Below the pieces are notes generated by a model. The model had not been told where the DNA came from. It was given only the letters and a program-made list of their open reading frames with translations, and made no database searches. This document shows, piece after piece, positions 34,358 to 46,981 of a DNA stretch of 64,000 nt (its first letter is position 1; each line of letters starts with the position of its first letter). This DNA comes from Candidatus Obscuribacteraceae bacterium (GTDB taxonomy: Bacteria; Cyanobacteriota; Vampirovibrionia; Obscuribacterales; Obscuribacteraceae). The DNA lies in the NCBI GenBank assembly GCA_044229845.1, contig JBGASG010000004.1, positions 256,001 through 320,000 on the forward strand. Reading direction: 5' to 3'. Made by a program: the position numbers and the translations under genes.

Positions 34358-34588
34358 TCACGCATTGAACTCTGGTGTGATATCCACTCCCTCGAAGGAT
34401 GGTGCATTGAAGAGGTGAGCCTTTAGTCCAGTGCTTTTGCGACTCGTTCGATTATACTCCGTCGCCGAAATGACGAAGACCTCGTCTTTGTGCCGTCGTA
34501 TCCGTTGCGGTCCTTTCGTCAGAGCAAGATTGACCACCTCAGAAAGTCTATTCTGTGCTTCGGCAAAATTCCAATCTGTCAATTGCAA
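34358..34588 (-). CDS. Phd/YefM family antitoxin, orphan
   Basis: W..AEAQNRLSEVVNLAL.KGPQRIRR....VFVISA.EY. Confidence 0.8.
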   Translation of the reverse strand: MQLTDWNFAEAQNRLSEVVNLALTKGPQRIRRHKDEVFVISATEYNRTSRKSTGLKAHLFNAPSFEGVDITPEFNA

Positions 34589-35464: not shown

Positions 35465-36100
35465 ATGACCCGAACCATGCAAGACAAAAGAAGACTTTTC
35501 TTCGGCAACCGGAAGAAGAATGTCATCGTGACAATCAGCGGCACGATAGTGATCCTCGCGCTCCTGGAATTGTGGATTGCAGCTAAAACCGTCTTGTCCG
35601 CGTTAGGCTTATCCTCAGCACTTCTAGTACTTCTAGCACCGATCGCTTTATTGTGGCGTTATCCGATTGCAATGTTTTTTGTGATGATCGGATATCCGAA
35701 TTTGACATGTAAAGTCAATTTTCTTCTCTTCAATCGCTGCTTCGGAAAACTTCCCGAACCAGGGTTAGCGCTAGGGATTCTAGTCGTTACGGTACCGATT
35801 ATTGTATCGCTTGTGCTTCCATCGACCCAGATACCACTTTTGCAATTGCAGATGCCGCCCTGGCTTGACGGCAGTTTCGTATACGCCTTCGGGTACCGAG
35901 CTGGTCTCGTCTGGCACTGTTGCGTGTGCGCATCTTGCCTGATACTCATGGATGCAGCCGGATTTTTGCTCATTCGAGCTTACTACCAAGAGAGGTTCAG
36001 CTGGTCGACATTTTGCTGGTTCGTTCTGGCAGACGTTCTATGCTCTCCATTGCTAGATTGGATCAGCATATTCTACAGAGTGTGGCCTAATGAACCCTAG
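35465..36100 (+). CDS. Hypothetical integral membrane protein
   Basis: About 5-6 hydrophobic segments; its 3' end overlaps the convergent 36053..37255 gene. Confidence 0.55.
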   Translation: MTRTMQDKRRLFFGNRKKNVIVTISGTIVILALLELWIAAKTVLSALGLSSALLVLLAPIALLWRYPIAMFFVMIGYPNLTCKVNFLLFNRCFGKLPEPGLALGILVVTVPIIVSLVLPSTQIPLLQLQMPPWLDGSFVYAFGYRAGLVWHCCVCASCLILMDAAGFLLIRAYYQERFSWSTFCWFVLADVLCSPLLDWISIFYRVWPNEP

Positions 36101-37255
36101 CTGTTTCAGTATGGCGCTATGTTCCCTCTCTGCGACGAATTTACCCGCGGCATTGAAGTGCCCGAGTTCCTTAATCCGACCAGCTGCAACCGCCTGAGCA
36201 TGAGTACTAATATGCATTTCTGGAGAATACATAAGCAATTTGTTTTCGGGTGGAGGCGTTAGGAGGAAGCTTCTGAAGTTTGGATTGAGATTCACTAATT
36301 GGTCAGCTTGGTGAATATCGTCATAGGAAAATTCGGAATAACCCTTTCGGTGCGGGTGTGAGTGGATGATTGCATCGAGTTTATACTGATTCGTTGCCAT
36401 CTGCACCAAATCACTAGCCGTGTGATTCTCACTCTGGTCTGGGGCGGTCTCGGGAGATGTCGTGTACCACAAGCTGCTTGCCGACAGAGGTCCCCCAGAT
36501 TGGCGCCCGAAGGCGACGTGAAACTCGCCCCCTTCTGTGCGCCTGGGATCATTCAGGATCGAGTTACAGCTCTCGAGAATGCCCTGCCCCACTGAAGGCA
36601 CCGGATGAATCTCTCCATAGGATTTGCCAAACCAACCTTTTGTTACCTCTGCCGCAGGTACTCCATGCTTTTTGGTTAAGTCCCAAATGATTCCATTTAG
36701 AAAATCCGTAGGTCTCTCATCCGGTGCCGGCTTAACGTCAGCGGCATCAGATTTTTTGTCAGGAGATTTTTTGTCAGAGCTCGGGTTCAAGGCTATCAGG
36801 TCGATATCTTGTGCTCCATTGAGTTTAGTGGGCTGGGAAAAGCCCATTAGTTCTTTTGCTTTACGCATCATGTAGTCAATCGAAAAAACGCTCTGGAGGC
36901 GCTCGCGTTCCTCCGCCGTCGGGGCGTCCTTCGTGGCTGCTTGCAATCCAATTAGAAACGACAGCCGCGGGCGGTAGGAATTCTCCATACCGTGTTCGCC
37001 GCTTGCTGTGTAGATGCGCCCCTTTTCTTTATCTTCGATGGCAAACTCTGATACCGCCTGCCCTTGCTTCGAAACCGCGGAAAGGAATTGATCATTACCG
37101 CCCGAAAATGTTTTGAACTTCGGTTCGTAAGGCGCGGCTTGCGGATCGTCTGTGATGGCGTCCTTCGCTATGTGTCCGCTGAGAAGAATCGTTTCCTTCG
37201 GGTGGTCGTCAAATTTATCGCCACCGCTCCCGCTCTCCTTGCCTTTTCCGACCAT
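36053..37255 (-). CDS. Putative polymorphic effector: conserved N-terminal domain plus JAB/MPN (DUF4329-like) C-terminal domain
   Basis: E...IIHSHP.......FSYDD...SFLLTP. N-terminal domain shared with 45064..46129. Confidence 0.7.
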   Translation of the reverse strand: MVGKGKESGSGGDKFDDHPKETILLSGHIAKDAITDDPQAAPYEPKFKTFSGGNDQFLSAVSKQGQAVSEFAIEDKEKGRIYTASGEHGMENSYRPRLSFLIGLQAATKDAPTAEERERLQSVFSIDYMMRKAKELMGFSQPTKLNGAQDIDLIALNPSSDKKSPDKKSDAADVKPAPDERPTDFLNGIIWDLTKKHGVPAAEVTKGWFGKSYGEIHPVPSVGQGILESCNSILNDPRRTEGGEFHVAFGRQSGGPLSASSLWYTTSPETAPDQSENHTASDLVQMATNQYKLDAIIHSHPHRKGYSEFSYDDIHQADQLVNLNPNFRSFLLTPPPENKLLMYSPEMHISTHAQAVAAGRIKELGHFNAAGKFVAEREHSAILKQLGFIRPHSVEYADPI

Positions 37256-37444
37256 ACCGCACCACCGACTGAGCTATCGTTCAGGTTATATACCCAAGGA
37301 GTGCAATCCTGGTGCTTCTTGCCCCTCAGAGTAGACCCTTCGCAGTCCAGTCGACTTTAGCATCCGGTCGCTTGTGAGTTACATACCTCTGCGTTCGTTC
37401 TGTCTTCAACGTGGAATAAATCCGAAGCCAACGGATTTGCACAC

Positions 37445-39619
37445 ATGCCCGAAGACCATACAGTGCAGCGCGACGAACAGCTCCAGTCACCGACCCAACT
37501 GCGGCGGGGCACGGTGTTGGACGGTAAATATGAGATTACCGATTACCTCGGCTCCGGTGGCATGGGCGCGGTGTACAAAGCCCGGCAGACCGACTTCGAC
37601 CGGTCTGTCGCCATCAAAACTCTGCATGCTCGGTTCACTTCTGATGTATCAGCCGTTAAGCGGTTTCAACGCGAAGCGCGCATCATCTCGCAATTGACGC
37701 ACAAGAACATCCTCGCCGTTTACTCATTTGGCGGACACCAGGATTTCATCTATCTGGCGATGGAGTATGTGCAGGGTACTTCGCTGGGACGTCTGCTGGC
37801 GGAGAAGGGCAAGATGACGCCGGAGCAGGCGCTCCCGATGCTCTTGCAAGTCTGCGACGGCATGGAACACGCCCACAAACACGAAGTGCTGCATCGCGAT
37901 TTGAAACCGGACAACGTGATGATCGTGACCTCTGGGCTTGCGGGTTCAGTTGTGAAGGTCGTGGACTTCGGGTTGGCAAAGTTGATGGATGGTCCCGATG
38001 GTCAGCGCCTGACGCGCACGGGCGAGGTCGTGGGAGATCCGCGCTACATGAGCCCGGAGCAGTGCGGGGGAGAAACTCTCGACGTGCGGTCAGATATCTA
38101 TTCCTTCGGTTGCTTGATGTACGAAGCATTGACTGGTAAGTGGCCGTTCGATGCCGATGATCCCGTAGCGATTCTGCATAAGCATATCGAACAAGATCCG
38201 GAACCATTCGCAAAACGGCTCGGGCTGCCGCCCGCCATTGAGGCAATAACTTTTACGGCAATGGCAAAAAATGCCAAAGACAGATACGAATCTTTTGGTG
38301 CAGTTGCGAAAGCACTACAGGATTTCGCCAGCAACCCGAATGCAAAGGTGGCTGCACCAGCAAGACGTGCCCGCGGGAAGAAACCTTCGAAGCTCGCTTT
38401 GGCAGGGATTGCCGTCGCTGTCGGTGTCGTCGCTGTCGGCGGCGCAGCCGCGCTTTTCGTAAGTCCATCGGATTGGTCGATTCTCCCGACCAAGTTGCAG
38501 TATCAAGCAGCAAGTTCACCCGGAGAAAAACTCAAAACCGGCATGCAACTAGGCGAGTACTACCTCGCGCACAACGCGCTTGACGAGGCGGCTGGCTACT
38601 TCACGGCAGTCAGAAAGCTGGCGGAGGCTGCCAATGACCGCGAAGCGAGTTTCTACAGCACCGCTGGGCTCAGTCAAGTTTTCGCCAAACAAGGGCGAGA
38701 GTCCGATGCGAGCAGTGCTGCAGTGTCATCCATCGCAACCGGACTCAATATGATCAATGCAGGGAACACAGACCGCAAGGTGTGTTACACAATCTGCACA
38801 GTGCTGCCGCTGTACAGCAGATCAGCGCCAGGCGACATGGTTGCCGCGGCTCACGAAGTCGCGAACGTTTACATAACACACAAACAACTGTCCAACGCGC
38901 GCACCGTGCTGGAGCAAGTGGCACCGATCGGAAACGGCGCCGCGAGGACATCAACGCTGATATTGCTCGGCGACCTCAGTCTGCGCATGAATGACAGAGC
39001 GAAGGCACAGCAATACTTCGGCGCGGCCGCCGCTATGGCGGAAAGTGCACAACCTAAGGCTGTGATACTGCAGATGGTCGGCGCCAGAGCTATGGCAGGC
39101 GGCGATGGGGAATTGGCAGCTGACTATTTCAAACAGGCATTGCAACTTACACCGAAAGCGATAGGTGCCCCTTTCGTTATGCTGCAACTACAGGTCGCGG
39201 ATTGCTACGCATCGACACAGAATTTGCGAGCAGCCAAACAGGCATACTCCGATGCGCTTGGGTACGCGCGCACTTTACCCAATGCGGAACCTCTGGTTAT
39301 CCGCAGCCTGCACGGGCTTGGTCAGGTGGAATACCACCTGGCGGATCACGCAGGCGCGGAAAACGCGTTCAAAGAAGAAGTAAGTGTTATCACTCACAGT
39401 CCAGCGCCAGATGTCGCTCAGCTAGCCAATGCAACATGCATGTTGGGCGACTCGCTAAGTAGGCAGAAAAAGTACTGCGAGGCGGCATCTCAATTCGAGC
39501 GGACCATGCAAATCATCACCGCCACTCCAAATCAGAACTCCTTAAATGAGCTGCTAGCTACGGCTACTGAAAAACATCGCACAAATGTCATCGATTGTGC
39601 CAACAGCAAGGGCAAGTAA
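37445..39619 (+). CDS. Hanks-type Ser/Thr kinase with TM and TPRs, paralog of 26045..28201
   Basis: LGSGGMGAVY, VAIK, HRDLKPDN, DFG and YMSPEQ motifs; kinase domain highly similar to the paralog. Confidence 0.95.
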   Translation: MPEDHTVQRDEQLQSPTQLRRGTVLDGKYEITDYLGSGGMGAVYKARQTDFDRSVAIKTLHARFTSDVSAVKRFQREARIISQLTHKNILAVYSFGGHQDFIYLAMEYVQGTSLGRLLAEKGKMTPEQALPMLLQVCDGMEHAHKHEVLHRDLKPDNVMIVTSGLAGSVVKVVDFGLAKLMDGPDGQRLTRTGEVVGDPRYMSPEQCGGETLDVRSDIYSFGCLMYEALTGKWPFDADDPVAILHKHIEQDPEPFAKRLGLPPAIEAITFTAMAKNAKDRYESFGAVAKALQDFASNPNAKVAAPARRARGKKPSKLALAGIAVAVGVVAVGGAAALFVSPSDWSILPTKLQYQAASSPGEKLKTGMQLGEYYLAHNALDEAAGYFTAVRKLAEAANDREASFYSTAGLSQVFAKQGRESDASSAAVSSIATGLNMINAGNTDRKVCYTICTVLPLYSRSAPGDMVAAAHEVANVYITHKQLSNARTVLEQVAPIGNGAARTSTLILLGDLSLRMNDRAKAQQYFGAAAAMAESAQPKAVILQMVGARAMAGGDGELAADYFKQALQLTPKAIGAPFVMLQLQVADCYASTQNLRAAKQAYSDALGYARTLPNAEPLVIRSLHGLGQVEYHLADHAGAENAFKEEVSVITHSPAPDVAQLANATCMLGDSLSRQKKYCEAASQFERTMQIITATPNQNSLNELLATATEKHRTNVIDCANSKGK

Positions 39620-39627
39620 CGGTCAGT

Positions 39628-40050
39628 TCACAGCGCTCGTTGTAAAAAGTATCTCTGATGAGAACTTGGGAAATCGTCCAGGGTTCCAAATATCGTATAA
39701 CCCAACTTCTCGTAAAACGGCAGCGCTTGAAAGCTGAAAGTGTCGAGCCATGCATGGTGGCAGCCGCGACGCCGAGCTTCATCATGAGCTGCTTCCAACA
39801 GCTTGGTTCCCCAACCAGATTTGCGGACACTTTCATCGACAGCCAAGTTTTCGATGAATAGCCAACCAAAGTACGTATGCCCCTCCAGTCCGCCGAGTAC
39901 CGTTCCCTGCGAATCCTTGAGAAGCAGTATCAGTTTCCTGAAGCTGGAGACCCCGACCTCGCTCTTGTTGTAAGCACGCAAGATAGCGAAGAACGATTCC
40001 ATCTCCTCTTTCGGAGGGGTTTCTTCGAAATGCTGTTCGAGAACTATCAC
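39628..40050 (-). CDS. GNAT family N-acetyltransferase
   Basis: LAVDESVRKSGWGTKLL and LDTFSFQALPFYEKLGY motifs. Confidence 0.93.
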   Translation of the reverse strand: MIVLEQHFEETPPKEEMESFFAILRAYNKSEVGVSSFRKLILLLKDSQGTVLGGLEGHTYFGWLFIENLAVDESVRKSGWGTKLLEAAHDEARRRGCHHAWLDTFSFQALPFYEKLGYTIFGTLDDFPSSHQRYFLQRAL

Positions 40051-41108
40051 TGCTCACGAGCGCCGCGCATGCTACGCAGCGGTGCAGTGATTTTCCAGGA
40101 TGTGCTATTCCGCATATCGCTCAACTGAGCCTCCAGCAATTCCCGCTCGCCCCGAGTGCGACACCTCAAATCATCGAACTGAGCAAGAACATCCGTCAAA
40201 TACCTCAGCGTTCGATACGCGAGTTCCTTATAGCCCTGCGCTAACATCCGAGCGTCGGCATAGACAGGCATTTCCAGAATCTGCGGGAGCGTTATGCCTT
40301 CGTCTTTGATCAAGTGATTTAGCTCCAGAGCGATGGTTTCGCACGCCCGCGCATAGATTTGCTCTGATGATTCGCCAAAGTCCTCGAGAAATCCTCGATA
40401 CTTCTTACCGAGCGCGAGAATGTCTAGCGCAAACAGCAATTGACTGAGGTTTTTCGACGTGCTGCTTTCCTCGTGCCGCCGAAAGCTGCACAGGACCTCG
40501 TCGATGTAGAAGTACTGAGCATCCATCAATATCCGAAACCAGTATTCGATATCTCCGTAGTGGAAAAACTGCGTGTCAAAACCACTCCCGGTTCGGTCTG
40601 CACGAAACATCACTGTACTCGGCTCGCCGACCCAGTTCGTCCATCGAAGCAGGTTGTACAGCACCACTTCGCGCCCCGAAATTTTCCGGCTACTCGGGAA
40701 CGGATGAAGCGTCTTCGTGACCGAGCCGTTTTTGTCTATCCATTGCTTTGCAGTGCTGATCAAAGTAACATCCGGGCTTTGCTCAAAGCGCGCGAGCATT
40801 CGCTCGAGCATTGAGGGCTCCAACTTGTCATCTTGCGCAAATGGTTTGATAAAAGCCCCTGTCGCACTCTCCAGACAGCGATTGTAATTAGCAAACAATC
40901 CCTTATTGGAATCATTGACCCAAGCGTTAATGCGGCTATCTTGCTTCGCATATCGGCTGATCACAGTCCAGCTATCGTCATCCGAACAGTCATCACCAAT
41001 CAAGAGTTCCCAATCCGGTGTGGATTGTGCCAACACGCTCTCGATTGCCTCTGGCAAGTAGCGAGAACCGTTGTAGACAGGCAGAAGCACAGACACACGG
41101 GGAGCCAC
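40047..41108 (-). CDS. GT2 glycosyltransferase, paralog of 18415..19578
   Basis: LPVYNG, GDDCSDD, FAQDD, NWVGEPSTVMFR and C-terminal STSWKITAPLR. Confidence 0.93.
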   Translation of the reverse strand: MAPRVSVLLPVYNGSRYLPEAIESVLAQSTPDWELLIGDDCSDDDSWTVISRYAKQDSRINAWVNDSNKGLFANYNRCLESATGAFIKPFAQDDKLEPSMLERMLARFEQSPDVTLISTAKQWIDKNGSVTKTLHPFPSSRKISGREVVLYNLLRWTNWVGEPSTVMFRADRTGSGFDTQFFHYGDIEYWFRILMDAQYFYIDEVLCSFRRHEESSTSKNLSQLLFALDILALGKKYRGFLEDFGESSEQIYARACETIALELNHLIKDEGITLPQILEMPVYADARMLAQGYKELAYRTLRYLTDVLAQFDDLRCRTRGERELLEAQLSDMRNSTSWKITAPLRSMRGAREQ

Positions 41109-41111
41109 GGT

Positions 41112-42644
41112 TCACCTCGTGTTTGTACTGAGAGCTAAAATCTCGTCGTCGTGCTGCTTCTGTTTCACATCGTTTTCCAACTTCGCCACGAGCTTTTGAA
41201 GGCCCGCAGGAGTTTTTCCGCGAAACACCAAGCGACAGCAGGACAACGCTGCCTTTGCAACAGAAAGCTTCGGACGCTTCTTAATCAGCCGCCACCAGTG
41301 CCAGATGCGGAAGCGGTAGGACTTCAGATACAGCAGGTCGTAAATCATGCGGTCGTACGCAAAAAGAAATGCCTTCGCGTCGAACATCGCATCGCTCGGT
41401 TCCTTCAAATAGAGCCGATGCGGGTGCCGCGCCACAAATCGTTGGCACGCGAGTTCGTATATCTCAGCCGTTTGGCGCGCGATTTCCGTGCGTTGAAACT
41501 TATCGAGAGTCCGCTGCCGCGCGGCTTTCCCCATGGCGATGCGTTCGGCATCGTTCTCCAGCAAACGCAAAATTGCATCGGCAAGTGCATCACCGTCGCG
41601 GGGCGGGACAATAATCCCCGACTCGCCGTCCGTCACATATTCACGCGTCCCGCCCGCCGAGGTGCCCACCACGGGGCGCCCGCAGGACATCGCTTCCAGG
41701 CAGGTATAAGGCGAGTTGTCGTACACCGACGGCACCACACAAATGTCGGCTGAGCGGTAGTGCGCAGGCAGTTCCTTCAATGGGATGCGAGGAATGAACA
41801 GCAAATTGCCGGCACAACCGCGGTCGGCGATTTGCTTATCCAGTTCAGCCTTGACCGACTTCTGTCCCTTGCCGTTATTGGTGTCATCGCCGATGATGAC
41901 GAAACGGACATTGGGAAACTTCGCCACCACTTTCGGCACTGCATCGATCAGATATCTGATGCCCTTGCGTTCTTCGAGGCGACCGACAAACAGCACGGTC
42001 AGCCGACCATCGGGCTTGATAGCCTTGTCCCCGTCGGGAGAAAACTCTTGCGGGTCAATCGGATTACGGATAATCCGTATTTCGTTGCGCGGATAATGCA
42101 AATCACTCGCCACGAAGTCAGCCAGATCCTCGCTCGGAGAAGTAATCGCGTCGGAGGAAACCATCGCCACCCGCTCAAGCATGGCGACAAACTGGTGATC
42201 GAAGGTCGGCGTGACGTTGTGCAGACCTTCGGCAATGAACTTGGAATGCGGTGTATAGAGCCGCACCACCAGCGGTGCCGCTTTAGTGATGGCGGGCACC
42301 AACCCCTCGGCAAGCAGTTCGGGCGTGTCGATTACATCGAAGGGACGTTCATTGTGCAGTTCGAAAAACTTTTCCCAGAGCGCCGTCGTCGTTTGCAAAA
42401 CATAACGACTGTAGGGCATACAAAAGGCAACACAGCCCAGATTTCCGGGGATATCGGTTGGGACGACCCGGTGCACCCGGATTCCGTCTTGAACGACGGT
42501 TTTCGCCGTATCCCTGGCCAGCGCTACGACTTCGACTTCATGCCCGATCTCCTTCAGCCCATTTGCCAAATGGTTGCTGAAGGTGGCAATGCCGCCGAAA
42601 CCGGTCTCTGGCGGATATTCACGCGAGATGATGCAGACGCGCAT
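41112..42644 (-). CDS. GT4 family glycosyltransferase
   Basis: SREYPPETGFGGI, FVGRLEERKG and VPSVYDNSPYTCLEAMSCG motifs. Confidence 0.94.
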   Translation of the reverse strand: MRVCIISREYPPETGFGGIATFSNHLANGLKEIGHEVEVVALARDTAKTVVQDGIRVHRVVPTDIPGNLGCVAFCMPYSRYVLQTTTALWEKFFELHNERPFDVIDTPELLAEGLVPAITKAAPLVVRLYTPHSKFIAEGLHNVTPTFDHQFVAMLERVAMVSSDAITSPSEDLADFVASDLHYPRNEIRIIRNPIDPQEFSPDGDKAIKPDGRLTVLFVGRLEERKGIRYLIDAVPKVVAKFPNVRFVIIGDDTNNGKGQKSVKAELDKQIADRGCAGNLLFIPRIPLKELPAHYRSADICVVPSVYDNSPYTCLEAMSCGRPVVGTSAGGTREYVTDGESGIIVPPRDGDALADAILRLLENDAERIAMGKAARQRTLDKFQRTEIARQTAEIYELACQRFVARHPHRLYLKEPSDAMFDAKAFLFAYDRMIYDLLYLKSYRFRIWHWWRLIKKRPKLSVAKAALSCCRLVFRGKTPAGLQKLVAKLENDVKQKQHDDEILALSTNTR

Positions 42645-42770
42645 GGGCTAGATGTTAGCACCAACCCCTTTACGTCTCATGAGATCCAGCATAACTCGAT
42701 GCGGTCAGGGAGCCCCGGCGCTTGGAAACCAAAGCCGAAGAACCGCAAATATGAGCGCTTTCCAACAGAG

Positions 42771-44330
42771 TCAACTTTGCTCCATTCGATCCAGGAGGTC
42801 TTTGGAGTCATCAACGTCGACTCCGGGCAGAGCCCCACCCCTTGTGCGACAAACAGGTAGCCACTCAGGTTGATCGACACCGAAGGGCTGTAACTTGTCG
42901 AGTTCCTTATGCGGAAGTCCTTCGACCGTGACCGCTGGTGCCAGCTCTGTGACCCGTCCGGCTCTCGTATCGACGGTGCGCAATTTCGTCGGGAATTCGT
43001 CTTTTTCGGGAGCATCCTCGAATGCGCTCTCCGGCAATAGACCGAGATCCTGCACCCACATCGCAGTGCGCGCCAGCGAAACTTTCACATGGTAGCTGCC
43101 ACCATCCGTCGCCCGCTTCAGAAGCGCGGTCATAACCCCGCTCGCAGCCAGATAGCCTGTTAGGAAATCGTTGAGATAGAAGACCGGCGAAAACGTCGGC
43201 GCGCCGCCTCGCCCTTCCGTTGCCGCAAAACCTGTAGCGACCTGCGCGTTTTGATCAAAGCCGGGGCGCGCCTTCCATGGTCCTTCGAATCCATACGCAT
43301 TCACGGACAAACATATAATCCCCGGGTGCTCTTTCGCTAGTTCCGCAGGCGAGAGCCCGAACCTTTCCGCCACGCTAGGTCTGTAGGAGCAGGCAAACAC
43401 GTCCGCCTCACTGAGCAGTCGTTTCATTTTTTGTCTGTCTTCTTCCAGAGTGAGATAGAGGTATGCCGAGCGTTTCCCCATATTCACCAGAAGATTTTGC
43501 GAAATCGTATCTCTGTGATAAGGAGAGCTGATGTGCATTACATCAGCTCCGTACTGAGCGAGACTGCGCATACTTCTAGGTCCGGCCAGCACGTGCGTGA
43601 AATCCACGACCTTGATGCCGTCGAGAGGAAAGCTACATCCCGGCTTCAATCCGTGCGGTTGCCCATCGCCGATTTTTTCAATTTCAATCACCGGCTTCGT
43701 CAGCAGCGCTTGTCCCTGCGGGTGTCGCCGCCATTCATCGGCTTCGTATGCAATGCAGGCAGGCAGACCAAGAGCCGACAGCTTCTCCTGAAGATCTTCG
43801 GCATCGTACTTCGCAATCTCTCTGCCAATCGACTCGCGATTGTTGCCGCAGTCGAAGAAGTTGAGATAGCCGCGTTCCAGTTTCGTATACGGAGGTCCGG
43901 CTTCAGTCATGATGTAGCGACCATCCGCGCAACGAAAGATGCCGTTGGTTGGCACCAGCTCTGCGCCGACCGTCAGCGCATAACCGTTGTGCCAGAGGAA
44001 GTGCGTCGAGTGCAGTGCGTGAATTGCATCATGAACGTCTATGTCGGCTACAAGATTCTCATTCGCGGTGCCTGTGCGATGTTTCCATATCGCTGCTGCT
44101 GCAATAACTTCGAGCAACAACGTGTATGCCGTCGCCTCGGACAGATGATGTGGAGACCTCAAGATCGGATCGGCACCGGTCAGGCGCGCGTCACCGTTGT
44201 AGGCGGCATCCAGCCCCAGTCCGCGCATCAAGTTGGATAGGTCCGGCAACTTCTGACTGCGGAGCGTTCTTATCACCTGGGTGACTGGTGTTGTCATTTC
44301 ATCAATCTCCTCGTCTATGCGACGCAGCAT
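42771..44330 (-). CDS. Family III CoA transferase (CaiB/BaiF), long form
   Basis: PLDGIKVVDFTHVLAGP, GADV, NMGKRS, YRP and RPGFD (catalytic Asp). Start may be 44297. Confidence 0.92.
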   Translation of the reverse strand: MLRRIDEEIDEMTTPVTQVIRTLRSQKLPDLSNLMRGLGLDAAYNGDARLTGADPILRSPHHLSEATAYTLLLEVIAAAAIWKHRTGTANENLVADIDVHDAIHALHSTHFLWHNGYALTVGAELVPTNGIFRCADGRYIMTEAGPPYTKLERGYLNFFDCGNNRESIGREIAKYDAEDLQEKLSALGLPACIAYEADEWRRHPQGQALLTKPVIEIEKIGDGQPHGLKPGCSFPLDGIKVVDFTHVLAGPRSMRSLAQYGADVMHISSPYHRDTISQNLLVNMGKRSAYLYLTLEEDRQKMKRLLSEADVFACSYRPSVAERFGLSPAELAKEHPGIICLSVNAYGFEGPWKARPGFDQNAQVATGFAATEGRGGAPTFSPVFYLNDFLTGYLAASGVMTALLKRATDGGSYHVKVSLARTAMWVQDLGLLPESAFEDAPEKDEFPTKLRTVDTRAGRVTELAPAVTVEGLPHKELDKLQPFGVDQPEWLPVCRTRGGALPGVDVDDSKDLLDRMEQS

Positions 44331-44333
44331 GCA

Positions 44334-45092
44334 TCAACGATACATGCTGCGCCAGAAAAGTTCGGTACAGATCCCAAGAACCACAATTACTATAGCCACC
44401 ACAACCCATTCCGACTTCGATAGATTTTCTCTCTTCGCCTCTCCTGCTGCACTAACCATGCGCAACGCCTGAAAGGACAACAGCATTCCGCAAGTCTGAA
44501 AAATCCGAAGCGCGAAGGAAAACGTGACGGGCGAGACTGCGGACTCATGAGCCGTCGAAAGTACGAGAATGTTGGACAGAAGGGACAATCCAAGCGGCAC
44601 AACAAATGGCGCAGTCAAGCCAGTCCAGACCGTCGTCACAAAGAGGGACCGCTTCCCGTTACGATCAAACAACCCGCGGGCCAACCAACAAGAAGCGGGC
44701 AAACCGCCAATCAGCGGACAGAGCAGCGCAGATAGAAGCAGCATTGCGCGGGGGTGCACGCCCATTCCGTTATTCTTAAGTTCACTTAGCTCGAGCAAAC
44801 AATACGACACGGCTAGTCCACTCAGAAAGATTGTCACAAGCGCCAAGTTATCCGTGGTGCCGATCGCGTGCTCCGAGTGATTCTTCAGGGCTCTCGCAAC
44901 GCGACGACACCAATACAGCCACGGAAGGGAACAGGCTAGTTGGGCAAGTATGTACAAGCGGACGCCATTTGGAATAGCTGCGAAGGAGTGCAATCCAAGC
45001 GCGCCTACAATGAGTGGAACCAGACACAAAAACTGGTCCCAAGGCACCCGATGGATGTGCTTCCTATTTGCGAGTCTCTGGCTTTCTGACAC
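44334..45092 (-). CDS. Hypothetical integral membrane protein (candidate immunity or partner protein)
   Basis: About 7 hydrophobic segments; its start overlaps the end of the upstream effector-like gene. Confidence 0.6.
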   Translation of the reverse strand: MSESQRLANRKHIHRVPWDQFLCLVPLIVGALGLHSFAAIPNGVRLYILAQLACSLPWLYWCRRVARALKNHSEHAIGTTDNLALVTIFLSGLAVSYCLLELSELKNNGMGVHPRAMLLLSALLCPLIGGLPASCWLARGLFDRNGKRSLFVTTVWTGLTAPFVVPLGLSLLSNILVLSTAHESAVSPVTFSFALRIFQTCGMLLSFQALRMVSAAGEAKRENLSKSEWVVVAIVIVVLGICTELFWRSMYR

Positions 45093-46129
45093 CCGACCTC
45101 GCCATTTCCTCGACCTTTGACCACTCTTCTTTTGTGATCGGTTGTTTCATCGTATAGATTACTTCGCCACCACCGGGAGCGATTAGCTGATAGCCTGTCG
45201 GAAGATACTCAGGGCTGCCATCGCGCTGTTTGACGGAGTGAAACACCTGCCCATTTTCTCTCGCAACTTTGTCTGGTGCTGCCAAAACGTACATCCCTGT
45301 CTTGTCAGCCATCATCGCGGCCAGACTCTTCCCTCCTTCTGGAACCGCTCCGCCGTCACACACAACTAATATCATCAACGGAGGTGCGTCGGGATGACTC
45401 TCCCGATGGGCTTTCAACGAAATATCGATTTTCTTCATAGCTTCATCTGGAGAGATTTTCGCTCCTGCCCACCACGGGATGCCACCAAACTCTTTTCAGA
45501 ATCGCACCAGGAGTGCCATGTGCAGAGACGGCAAAGATTTCGGGCGGAGCGGTAGTCTTCGGAAGTCCCATATGCAGGTCCAGCGGACCAATTGCAATGC
45601 CAATATCTCCTGCGAAATCGCAATCGGCGTTACGGACTGATCCCTCCGGCGGTCCAATCTCCACGGCTGGGTGCTTGATGCGTTCACTTGCCTCATCCTT
45701 GTTCTGAACCTCGCCAGGCAACATGAGGGTAGAAAAACGCTTCGAAACCGCAGACTGAGCCGATTCGAGCAGTCCGCTCGCCTTTCTCACAATGTAGTCA
45801 ATCGAAAAGATGGCCCTAATTTCGGCCTCTTGCTCTGGCGTTTCAGCCACCGAAAGTGCGTTTTTCAACCCTTCCATGAAAGAGTGTCGAGGCACATGGC
45901 TCTCACCACTAGCTCTATATTCTTTGCCGGCGGCCTTGTCTTCCAAAACAAATTCGGCACCTGAGCGCGCAGCGGACAGCGCCTGATCGCCAACACCCGA
46001 GAACGTCTTAAACTTGGGCTCATATCCGGCCGCCTGCTGCTCCTCCGATATGTTCTCCTCTGCGGCTTTACAGCCTGATGTCCCGTCGGGTTTCTCCGAG
46101 TTCTTATGAAAGTTTCTCTCTAGCGACAT
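45064..46129 (-). pseudogene. Frameshifted putative polymorphic effector: conserved N-terminal domain plus a His/Cys (caspase/C80-like) peptidase-like C-terminus
   Basis: ORF from ATG 46129 ends at 45443 just after VSAHG. The next frame is open from about 45496 through ILVVCDGG...LAAMMADKTGMYVLAAP to 45064. Confidence 0.65.
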
Positions 46130-46295: not shown

Positions 46296-46577
46296 ATGTC
46301 CAAACGATACTCTATAGCCGAGGCGCGAGATAATCTTGCAGCCATCCTTTACGAACTCGAACACGAAAAGAGCGTCGAGATCACTAGGCGAGGGCAGCCT
46401 GTTGCAGTTTTGGTATCGAAGGCGGCCTATGATCGAATGAATTCCCCGGGTCAAGGTTTCTGGAACGCATACGAAGCCTTCAAACGAAGGGTGAATCTTA
46501 GTGAACTAAACATCGATCCCGACGAGGTTTGGGGTAATGTACGCGACCAGTCACAGGGGCGCAGAATCGACCTTTGA
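46296..46577 (+). CDS. Phd/YefM family antitoxin
   Basis: YSIAEARDNL...VEITRRGQPVAVLVS; overlaps the toxin start. Confidence 0.92.
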   Translation: MSKRYSIAEARDNLAAILYELEHEKSVEITRRGQPVAVLVSKAAYDRMNSPGQGFWNAYEAFKRRVNLSELNIDPDEVWGNVRDQSQGRRIDL

Positions 46578-46981
46578 ACAGATTTCTGCTCGATACGAAT
46601 GTCGTTTCAGAGCCGCTCAGACCGAAGCCGAACCGCATTCTAATTGCCCGTCTGAGAGAGCACGAAACGGAATTAGCGCTACCCTCGATCGTCTGGCATG
46701 AACTCCTATTTGGCTGCGCCTCTCTGCCCGTCGGTGTGAAACGCACTGCTATAGAAGATTATCTGAATTCGATACCCTGGATCATTTTGCCTTATGATTC
46801 CGAGGCCGCAGAATGGCACGCACAAGAGCGCGCGCGTCTTCAGCGGCTCGGAAAGACGCCCACCTTCCCTGATGGGCAGATAGCCGCTATTGCGGTCACT
46901 CAAAAGCTCACGCTAGTCACACTCAACCGCCGCGATTTCCAGAACTTCAAAGGAGTGAATCTTGCCGACTGGACTCGCTAG
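46574..46981 (+). CDS. vapC: VapC/PIN domain toxin
   Basis: LLDTNVVSE, EL.FG, DGQIAAIA and LVTLN.RDF motifs. Confidence 0.93.
   Translation: MNRFLLDTNVVSEPLRPKPNRILIARLREHETELALPSIVWHELLFGCASLPVGVKRTAIEDYLNSIPWIILPYDSEAAEWHAQERARLQRLGKTPTFPDGQIAAIAVTQKLTLVTLNRRDFQNFKGVNLADWTR

Follow-up and report, generated by a model that had tools for sequence, protein, structure and literature searches.

What kind of system is encoded by two nearby bacterial genes whose products begin alike and end as entirely different proteins? The question is raised by a 64,000-nucleotide window of a Candidatus Obscuribacteraceae contig (JBGASG010000004.1, positions 256,001 to 320,000), in which gene 1 and gene 2 share an N-terminal region of ~130 residues, the leader, and then part into different C-terminal domains, the tails, which are JAB/MPN-like in gene 1 and caspase- or cysteine protease domain (CPD)-like in gene 2. 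The initial annotation read this as a polymorphic toxin layout, with a constant N-terminus, swapped enzyme-like C-termini, and an adjacent partner gene, and both phylogeny and strain-level swaps now support that layout beyond the two genes. Comparison of the genome carrying the window (G000) with its sister genome (G208) and with other genomes reveals a modular family with repeated strain-level exchange, selection on the leader, intact catalytic motifs, and tail-linked partners. The two window genes are probably (at a probability of about 0.7) members of a lineage-restricted polymorphic toxin-immunity family with an undescribed leader.

A common leader followed by different tails

Residues 30 to 141 of the gene 1 protein align with residues 23 to 125 of the gene 2 protein with 52 identities in 112 positions (46%, E = 2e-25); both peptides quoted in the initial annotation are present, and beyond this core the proteins show no further alignment, in agreement with the complete divergence first described. 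Inserts of variable length separate three conserved blocks, namely a K-x-A-x-E ... Y-E-x-x-F-x-S-F-S segment, an F-x-[IL]-E-D beta-hairpin, and a helical hairpin ending in F-S-I-x-Y-x-x-R-K-A. The leader is mostly an extended, charged chain, and its model (predicted template modeling score [pTM], 0.36) is extended over the first 70 residues and confident at the hairpins only, with the helices at 98 to 137 of gene 1 having a predicted local distance difference test score (pLDDT) of about 90. A fold search with the model returned generic helical hairpins only (best Z, 5.9), showing neither kinship nor a new fold. The N-terminal domain had not been recognized by the initial annotation, and searches of Pfam, NCBIfam, PHROGs, and PADLOC likewise gave no match to the leader, nor was there a usable Atlas match. 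Neither gene 1 nor gene 2 codes for a signal peptide, as previously noted, judged from a hydropathy scan only, and no hydrophobic signal was seen across the leader proteins except in over-extended starts.

The leader is, by its substitution pattern, under purifying selection, with ratios of nonsynonymous to synonymous rates (dN/dS) of 0.09 and 0.16 in two informative pairs. Synonymous sites are saturated between gene 1 and gene 2, which are therefore old paralogues rather than the products of a recent swap. In 10 of 29 shorter members, compared with a background of 4.9%, the leader is followed by a short L-I-A-x-N motif, perhaps a junction or processing site. A 17-bp identity between the two genes had been placed immediately before the point of divergence; it is present at both coordinates, but the protein likeness runs ~ten codons further. 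It was rejected as a recombination site, as 12 of 200 synonymous recodings with genome codon usage reach at least 17 bp and it is not the longest match in other pairs, and it is no special element.

Exchange of tails between leaders and between strains

In a leader tree of 38 rows, from which fragments and near-duplicates were left out, 8 changes are required for the CPD-like tails and 11 for the JAB tails, with the starred branches forcing at least 5 each. The leader nearest to that of gene 2 is P0020 (support 94/91, not starred), which carries a JAB tail. The leaders of P0011 and P0012 are identical at 124 of 131 residues, yet the two proteins diverge at residue 209, one ending in a CPD-like tail and the other in a JAB tail; P0041 and P0049 diverge after about 420 residues.

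Tail exchange also occurs between close strains, as seen at two loci of contig C8 when G000 and G208 are compared. At the first, a giant member and its G208 orthologue are identical at 1740 of 1777 body residues and at 228 of 478 tail residues, and the partner paralogues that follow number five in G000 and three in G208 and are in different order, and in both strains the partner in first place recurs farther along the other strain's array (98% and 95%). At the second, the flanks are 97.5% and 99.6% alike, and tail and partner are without a nucleotide match; the G208 version is broken. On contig C15 of G000, gene pairs stand in a tandem row of three, one with a JAB tail and two with CPD-like tails, and every pair includes a transmembrane (TM) gene; G208 has two pairs there. 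Five tandem kinase-like paralogues lie behind the 2319-aa member (L004:1263-6160), against three in G208 in another order.

The arrays bear on an alternative in which the leader proteins are effectors injected into eukaryotic prey or hosts (algae, protists) and the neighbors are chaperones or adaptors. Partners that change with the tails, and displaced partners that are kept in arrays, are expected only if kin bear rival toxins, and the comparative survey of polymorphic toxins (Zhang et al. 2012, PMC3482391) makes the same argument for JAB toxins with immunity genes; a nuclease tail of the contact-dependent inhibition (CDI) type is also present. Eukaryotic targets would accord with the annexin-like repeat found in giant leader members, with the fusion of a partner to a papain-like tail, with the VirB4-like and coupling-protein-like genes of G000, and with the delivery of enzymes into Chlorella by a type IV secretion system (T4SS) that is proposed for the related predator Vampirovibrio (PMC4451040). 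On balance this alternative is unlikely.

Catalytic domains of the tails

The 44 tail-bearing leader proteins form 17 tail clusters, several singletons being fragments, and the largest have 12, 9, 5, and 3 members, with the gene 2 tail in the 12-member cluster. Gene 1, which has a full-length relative with 56% identity (P0015), matches Pfam Prok-JAB at E = 0.007 (16.7 bits, below the cut-off of 25), the DUF4329 row is absent from its Pfam scan, and its tail has Atlas features at 0.92 to Toxin-JAB1 and DUF4329 clusters; another leader protein, P0025, reaches 25.7 bits for DUF4329, under the cut-off of 28.6. The five putative catalytic residues are invariant in all 12 rows of the JAB alignment (A3) and equal the Tox-JAB-2 motif, which PMC3482391 gives as E, H[ST]H, S, and D; the curated profile cut-off is not reached. 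The gene 1-type tails are a separate JAB clade that is predicted to work like Tox-JAB-2. In two other family genomes, JAB relatives were seen that have neither the leader nor a TM neighbor (L120:1480-2481 in G258 and L121:1384-2259 in G270), and the G270 copy is without one metal-binding His.

Gene 2 had been described as one open gene at 45064..46129, and this does not hold: it is frameshifted, with the 228-aa frame stopping at 45443-45445 and the rest in another frame, and the frame change falls between the His and Cys motifs. The 3' piece has 43% identity over 136 aa with the intact relative P0010 (E = 4e-34). The same split is present in G208 (L092, 99.975% identical over 12 kb) and, with no indels, in a contig of sequencing run X8, which may be the source of the window DNA. 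Gene 2 represents a decayed copy that has retained its partner gene, and decay is frequent among leader genes (gene 2, a C3 copy, and two G208 copies). A JAB member on C3 that is split in G000 is a single 495-codon frame in G208 (L002:5322-6799).

The model of P0010 has a pLDDT of about 90 to 96 over most of residues 270 to 420, and its best fold matches are CPD cysteine protease domains and a CHAT caspase-like domain (Z of 6.8, 5.9, and 5.4; Foldseek E about 0.02). A caspase-like protein of G000 is also matched weakly by the domain profile (E = 6e-4). The Cys is near-invariant among the CPD-like tails and the His is variable (EG in some members). The P0041 tail contains a CDI toxin REase domain over the Pfam cut-off and that of P0065 a papain-like domain. 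Known toxin folds with intact active sites are represented by the invariant JAB motif, by the His and Cys of P0010, and by the CDI REase domain over the cut-off, gene 2 itself being split. PDB sequence searches with the JAB alignment, P0049, P0027, and one partner returned nothing useful.

Partner genes

Both window genes adjoin a multi-TM orphan gene, as first noted (Table 1), and the association extends to other loci. Among the 10 distinct JAB/CPD loci of G000 and G208, 8 have a small gene with at least 3 TM segments at the 3' end, and the background for a small multi-TM 3' neighbor is 52 of 1935 comparable genes (2.7%). Convergent genes with 2 to 3 TM segments are common at distant loci, and kinase-like tails have soluble partners. 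Gene 1 and its neighbor are on opposite strands with a short tail-to-tail overlap and no co-transcription, and gene 2 and its neighbor are co-oriented. The neighbor of gene 1 has no relative among the 103 other family genomes or in the protein search, and that of gene 2 was found solely in G000 and G208 among 104 family genomes. Prediction of a complex between the JAB domain of gene 1 and the adjoining TM protein, both without an alignment, gave no answer (score, 0.00). The JAB and CPD-like tails lack a signal peptide but are paired with membrane proteins, and for this reason are most likely envelope-acting.

Table 1. Positions of the leader genes, their domains, and adjoining candidate immunity genes in the window
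Feature	Position	Strand	Basis or remark
Gene 1, candidate toxin, 400-aa intact leader + JAB-domain protein	36053..37255	-	ORF reading, Pfam, Atlas, relative P0015
Gene 1 conserved leader core, aa 30-141	36833..37168	-	Extended segment, beta-hairpin, helical hairpin
Gene 1 JAB/MPN-like domain; E244, H298, H300, S310, D313	36086..36628	-	
Gene 1 neighbor, candidate immunity, 211-aa, about 6-TM orphan	35465..36100	+	Tail-to-tail with gene 1
Gene 2 5' frame, 228 aa: leader followed by initial portion of caspase/CPD-like domain, HG motif	45443..46129	-	
Gene 2 conserved leader core, aa 23-125	45755..46063	-	
Gene 2 3' piece, other frame: remaining caspase/CPD-like domain, conserved Cys	45064..45495	-	
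Gene 2 neighbor, candidate immunity, 252-aa, about 5-TM orphan, intact, directly downstream	44334..45092	-	
17-bp match copy 1	36870..36886	.	Codons of FSIDY motif
17-bp match copy 2	45792..45808	.	Codons of FSIDY motif

The Phd-type genes that the initial annotation placed near both genes are indeed present, with an orphan at 34358-34588 and a second at 46296-46577 that forms a complete Phd-PIN pair flanking the region (46296-46981), but they are not constant neighbors in the leader loci read and are not supported as parts of the system. Phd and PIN genes close to several loci, together with the lack of a signal peptide and of nearby export genes and a patchy distribution, would fit intracellular toxin-antitoxin or abortive-infection modules in which the leader is regulatory or auto-inhibitory; this is improbable for a family in which one leader precedes many unrelated enzymes, members with long bodies reach up to 2300 aa, partners are membrane and lipoprotein-like proteins, and 0 of 14 proteins match PADLOC.

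Kinases form a second group of neighbors. G000 has 85 Ser/Thr kinase genes by motif, and one lies within two genes of 2 of the 8 leader genes (background, 5.6%), as might be expected if the tails were non-toxic envelope or signaling enzymes with membrane receptors, for example for kin recognition feeding Ser/Thr kinase-TPR receptors; the relatedness of TM partners across tail classes points the same way. Six of the eight leader genes have no kinase neighbor, however, the tail repertoire matches known toxin classes, and frequent decay with retention of the partner fits conflict systems, and we consider this the least probable of the readings. Ser/Thr kinase-TM-TPR genes were often noted upstream of leader genes (window 37445-39619; L001, L088, and L091), and a TPR fragment of one such gene lies between the C3 member and a TM gene.

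Distribution and copy number

The profile search of the genome that the initial annotation had proposed yields 8 leader genes in G000, and still 8 on iteration. Within the same family, a 7-row leader profile matches 26 of the other 96 genomes, and in ten other families of the class it matches 0 of 204; a 26-row profile, partly built from first-round matches, raises the family count to 30 of 104 and matches 0 of 400 other genomes in a phylum sample. Most of the distant matches (first-round E of 1e-4 to 1e-11) cover mainly the last helical block, so the close family comprises the genus (8 and 12 copies) and one further genome. A search of 1.84 billion protein representatives gave 55 matches, 54 of which re-match, with the leader starting within the first 67 residues and at residue 1 in 46; P0046 was dropped as a low-complexity false match. 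A scan of metagenome contigs gave 320 pattern matches, 0 of which were confirmed. N-terminal clustering for other leader families recovers this one and no comparable second among the 22 clusters listed, with the exception of one four-member cluster. A 3.7-kb contig (L036) filed under a Bdellovibrionota metagenome-assembled genome encodes a protein identical to that of locus L037 in G208 and is probably mis-binned rather than transferred. No account of the family was found in the papers searched on Obscuribacterales, Obscuribacter, or Melainabacteria with respect to polymorphic toxins, immunity proteins, or type IV effectors, supplements not being covered.

The window DNA is present in sludge and bioreactor sequencing runs, and locus L035 is 99% identical to gene 1. 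RNA libraries from three runs (two studies) have short contigs on gene 1 and few on gene 2; these runs were picked by gene 1 itself and DNA carry-over is possible, and they are not taken as expression. A promoter and terminator scan was at chance level. By eye, a GGG-[TC]-A-[TC]-A-[AT]-like word is present ~20 to 40 nt before the start in ~7 of 12 members, including upstream of window 37255 and several other members (background, 61 of 3250 upstream regions), and is perhaps a shared promoter element.

Candidate export routes

The initial annotation proposed that the leader is a trafficking tag for a lineage-specific secretion route, and a role as a trafficking tag is plausible. FHIPEP, contractile sheath, VipB, WXG100, T4SS-DNA_transf, and CagX were not found in G000, which is 88% complete; with no marker found there of type III (T3SS) or type VI (T6SS) secretion systems, extracellular contractile injection systems (eCIS), or WXG100, T4SS-like and Tad parts are the candidates. 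G000 has two VirB4/TraC-like ATPases, four weak TrbI matches, and a TrwB-like membrane ATPase over cut-off, as well as two Tad loci and two secretins. Of the 104 family genomes, 103 have a VirB4-like gene, mostly at 75 to 86% identity, and 30 have the leader, and co-occurrence is uninformative for a leader-machine link because the VirB4-like gene is near-universal in the family. Tad-dependent contact killing is reported from Myxococcus. A route other than these two, or an unrecognized one, is slightly favored, with the T4SS-like machine a tentative candidate and Tad a rather doubtful one.

The T4SS-like kit is chromosomal and lies amid housekeeping genes (L053:10258-19984, in G000 contig C17; L054:8090-10912; and L133:4903-15337), and large unnamed membrane proteins are encoded on either side of the VirB4/TraC-like ATPase. 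At another site, a single run of genes codes for a TrwB-like ATPase, a HerA-like ATPase, and two giant proteins of 1388 and 3443 aa. The kit appears to be a domesticated machine. Signal-peptide Rhs-type proteins and Rhs fragments at C13:31647, C1:1039850, C3:95982, C3:66870, and C22:403416 of G000 constitute what we take to be a second, classical polymorphic toxin set.

Comparison with known systems

The closest parallel is with the polymorphic toxins of Zhang et al. (2012, PMC3482391), among them Tox-JAB-2/DUF4329, Tox-JAB-1, and Tox-Caspase. The constant N-terminus, exchanged enzyme, and adjacent partner are the same, as are the strain-variable tandem partner arrays, which when homogeneous are termed polyimmunity loci there, and the caspase-like His and Cys are shared; the toxin classes listed in that paper include JAB, caspase, papain-like, REase, and RelA/SpoT domains. 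Unlike those systems, the leader is not among the leaders of Table 1 of that paper, the JAB/CPD members have no RHS or other repeat body, the partners are polytopic membrane proteins, often convergent, and not Imm-NTF2-2, Imm65, or Imm36, there are few or no leaderless JAB/CPD cassettes, and the lineage is outside those treated. The family has the genomic hallmarks of polymorphic toxin systems, and its function and export are predicted.

Several other systems invite comparison. In the LXG/WXG (type VII secretion system), MIX/FIX/RIX (T6SS), and TANFOR groups, one N-terminal domain marks unrelated toxins with immunity genes downstream, whereas the leader here has no Pfam or NCBIfam match and is largely extended, not a compact domain. 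The X-T4SS effectors with XVIPCD of Xanthomonadales are antibacterial, scattered on the chromosome, without a signal peptide, and paired with envelope-located cognate immunity proteins; their signal is C-terminal, their immunity genes are upstream, and their machine is a chromosomal T4SS, whereas the constant part here is N-terminal and no VirB9/CagX match was found in the 88%-complete G000. T3SS effector leaders, which bear a chaperone-binding beta motif, resemble the leader here in being extended, charged N-terminal stretches of 100 to 130 residues that include a short hydrophobic beta segment, but no FHIPEP export gate was found in G000, and the partners resemble immunity proteins and not class I chaperones.

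A model for the family and its implications

In the reading as a polymorphic toxin-immunity system, each protein presents its signal-peptide-less leader first, then a variable linker, and a C-terminal enzyme domain last (JAB-, caspase/CPD-, papain-, kinase-, REase-like, and others), with tail and small 3' gene exchanged together by recombination. The leader would be read by a chaperone or by the ATPase of an export machine, the tails would be toxic to rival bacteria, and the adjacent partner would protect the producer cell. JAB and CPD-like tails would most likely act at the target envelope after one-step delivery, and kinase-like tails, with their soluble partners, in the cytoplasm.

Several observations weigh against a toxin-immunity system of this kind. 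Two of the 10 JAB/CPD loci have no TM neighbor, and 3 of the 8 TM partners, as well as most at distant loci, are on the opposite strand, unlike classical co-transcribed immunity genes. The partners at one JAB locus and at one CPD-like locus are related to each other (31%, E = 2e-7), and such sharing across tail classes fits badly with strict enzyme-specific immunity. The partner family of the papain-like tails, with ten members in G000, includes several copies without a TM segment, and in two proteins the partner is fused to the tail; it could be an adaptor rather than an antidote. No secretion gene lies beside the leader loci read, the match behind the CPD-like assignment is moderate (Z of 6.8 with a root mean square deviation of 3.3 and 133 aligned), and the kinase-, lyase-, lysozyme-, and RelA-like tail labels are motif readings, for which library searches gave no confirmation. 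Finally, at least 10 further G000 proteins (on C1, C3, C8, and C18) carry the papain-like tail of the C8:74914 member without the leader, behind other unstructured N-termini, and most are followed by a related partner of 200 to 260 aa, once fused. Because papain-like tails occur behind other N-termini, and JAB tails without this leader occur in two other family genomes, the leader is only one among several; within a wider repertoire it may serve as a label specific to a chaperone or adaptor.

A broader proposal, in which the leader is one label of an undescribed Obscuribacterales interbacterial injection system built either on Tad pili or on the family-wide, chromosomal T4SS-like machine, with the JAB and caspase/CPD-like tails forming a new kind of envelope-acting toxin that polytopic membrane proteins encoded tail-to-tail neutralize, is at present speculative. 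The substrate of JAB-type bacterial toxins is itself unsettled between peptidase and nuclease (PMC3482391), and the JAB domains here, predicted to be small and soluble and accompanied by membrane partners, make that question directly testable and point to the cell envelope. As a sequence marker, the leader can serve to collect new families of toxins and immunity proteins from an uncultured cyanobacterial sister lineage of sludge and soil, and if it does feed a conserved T4SS-like machine, this would explain the family-wide retention of that machine in the core genome.

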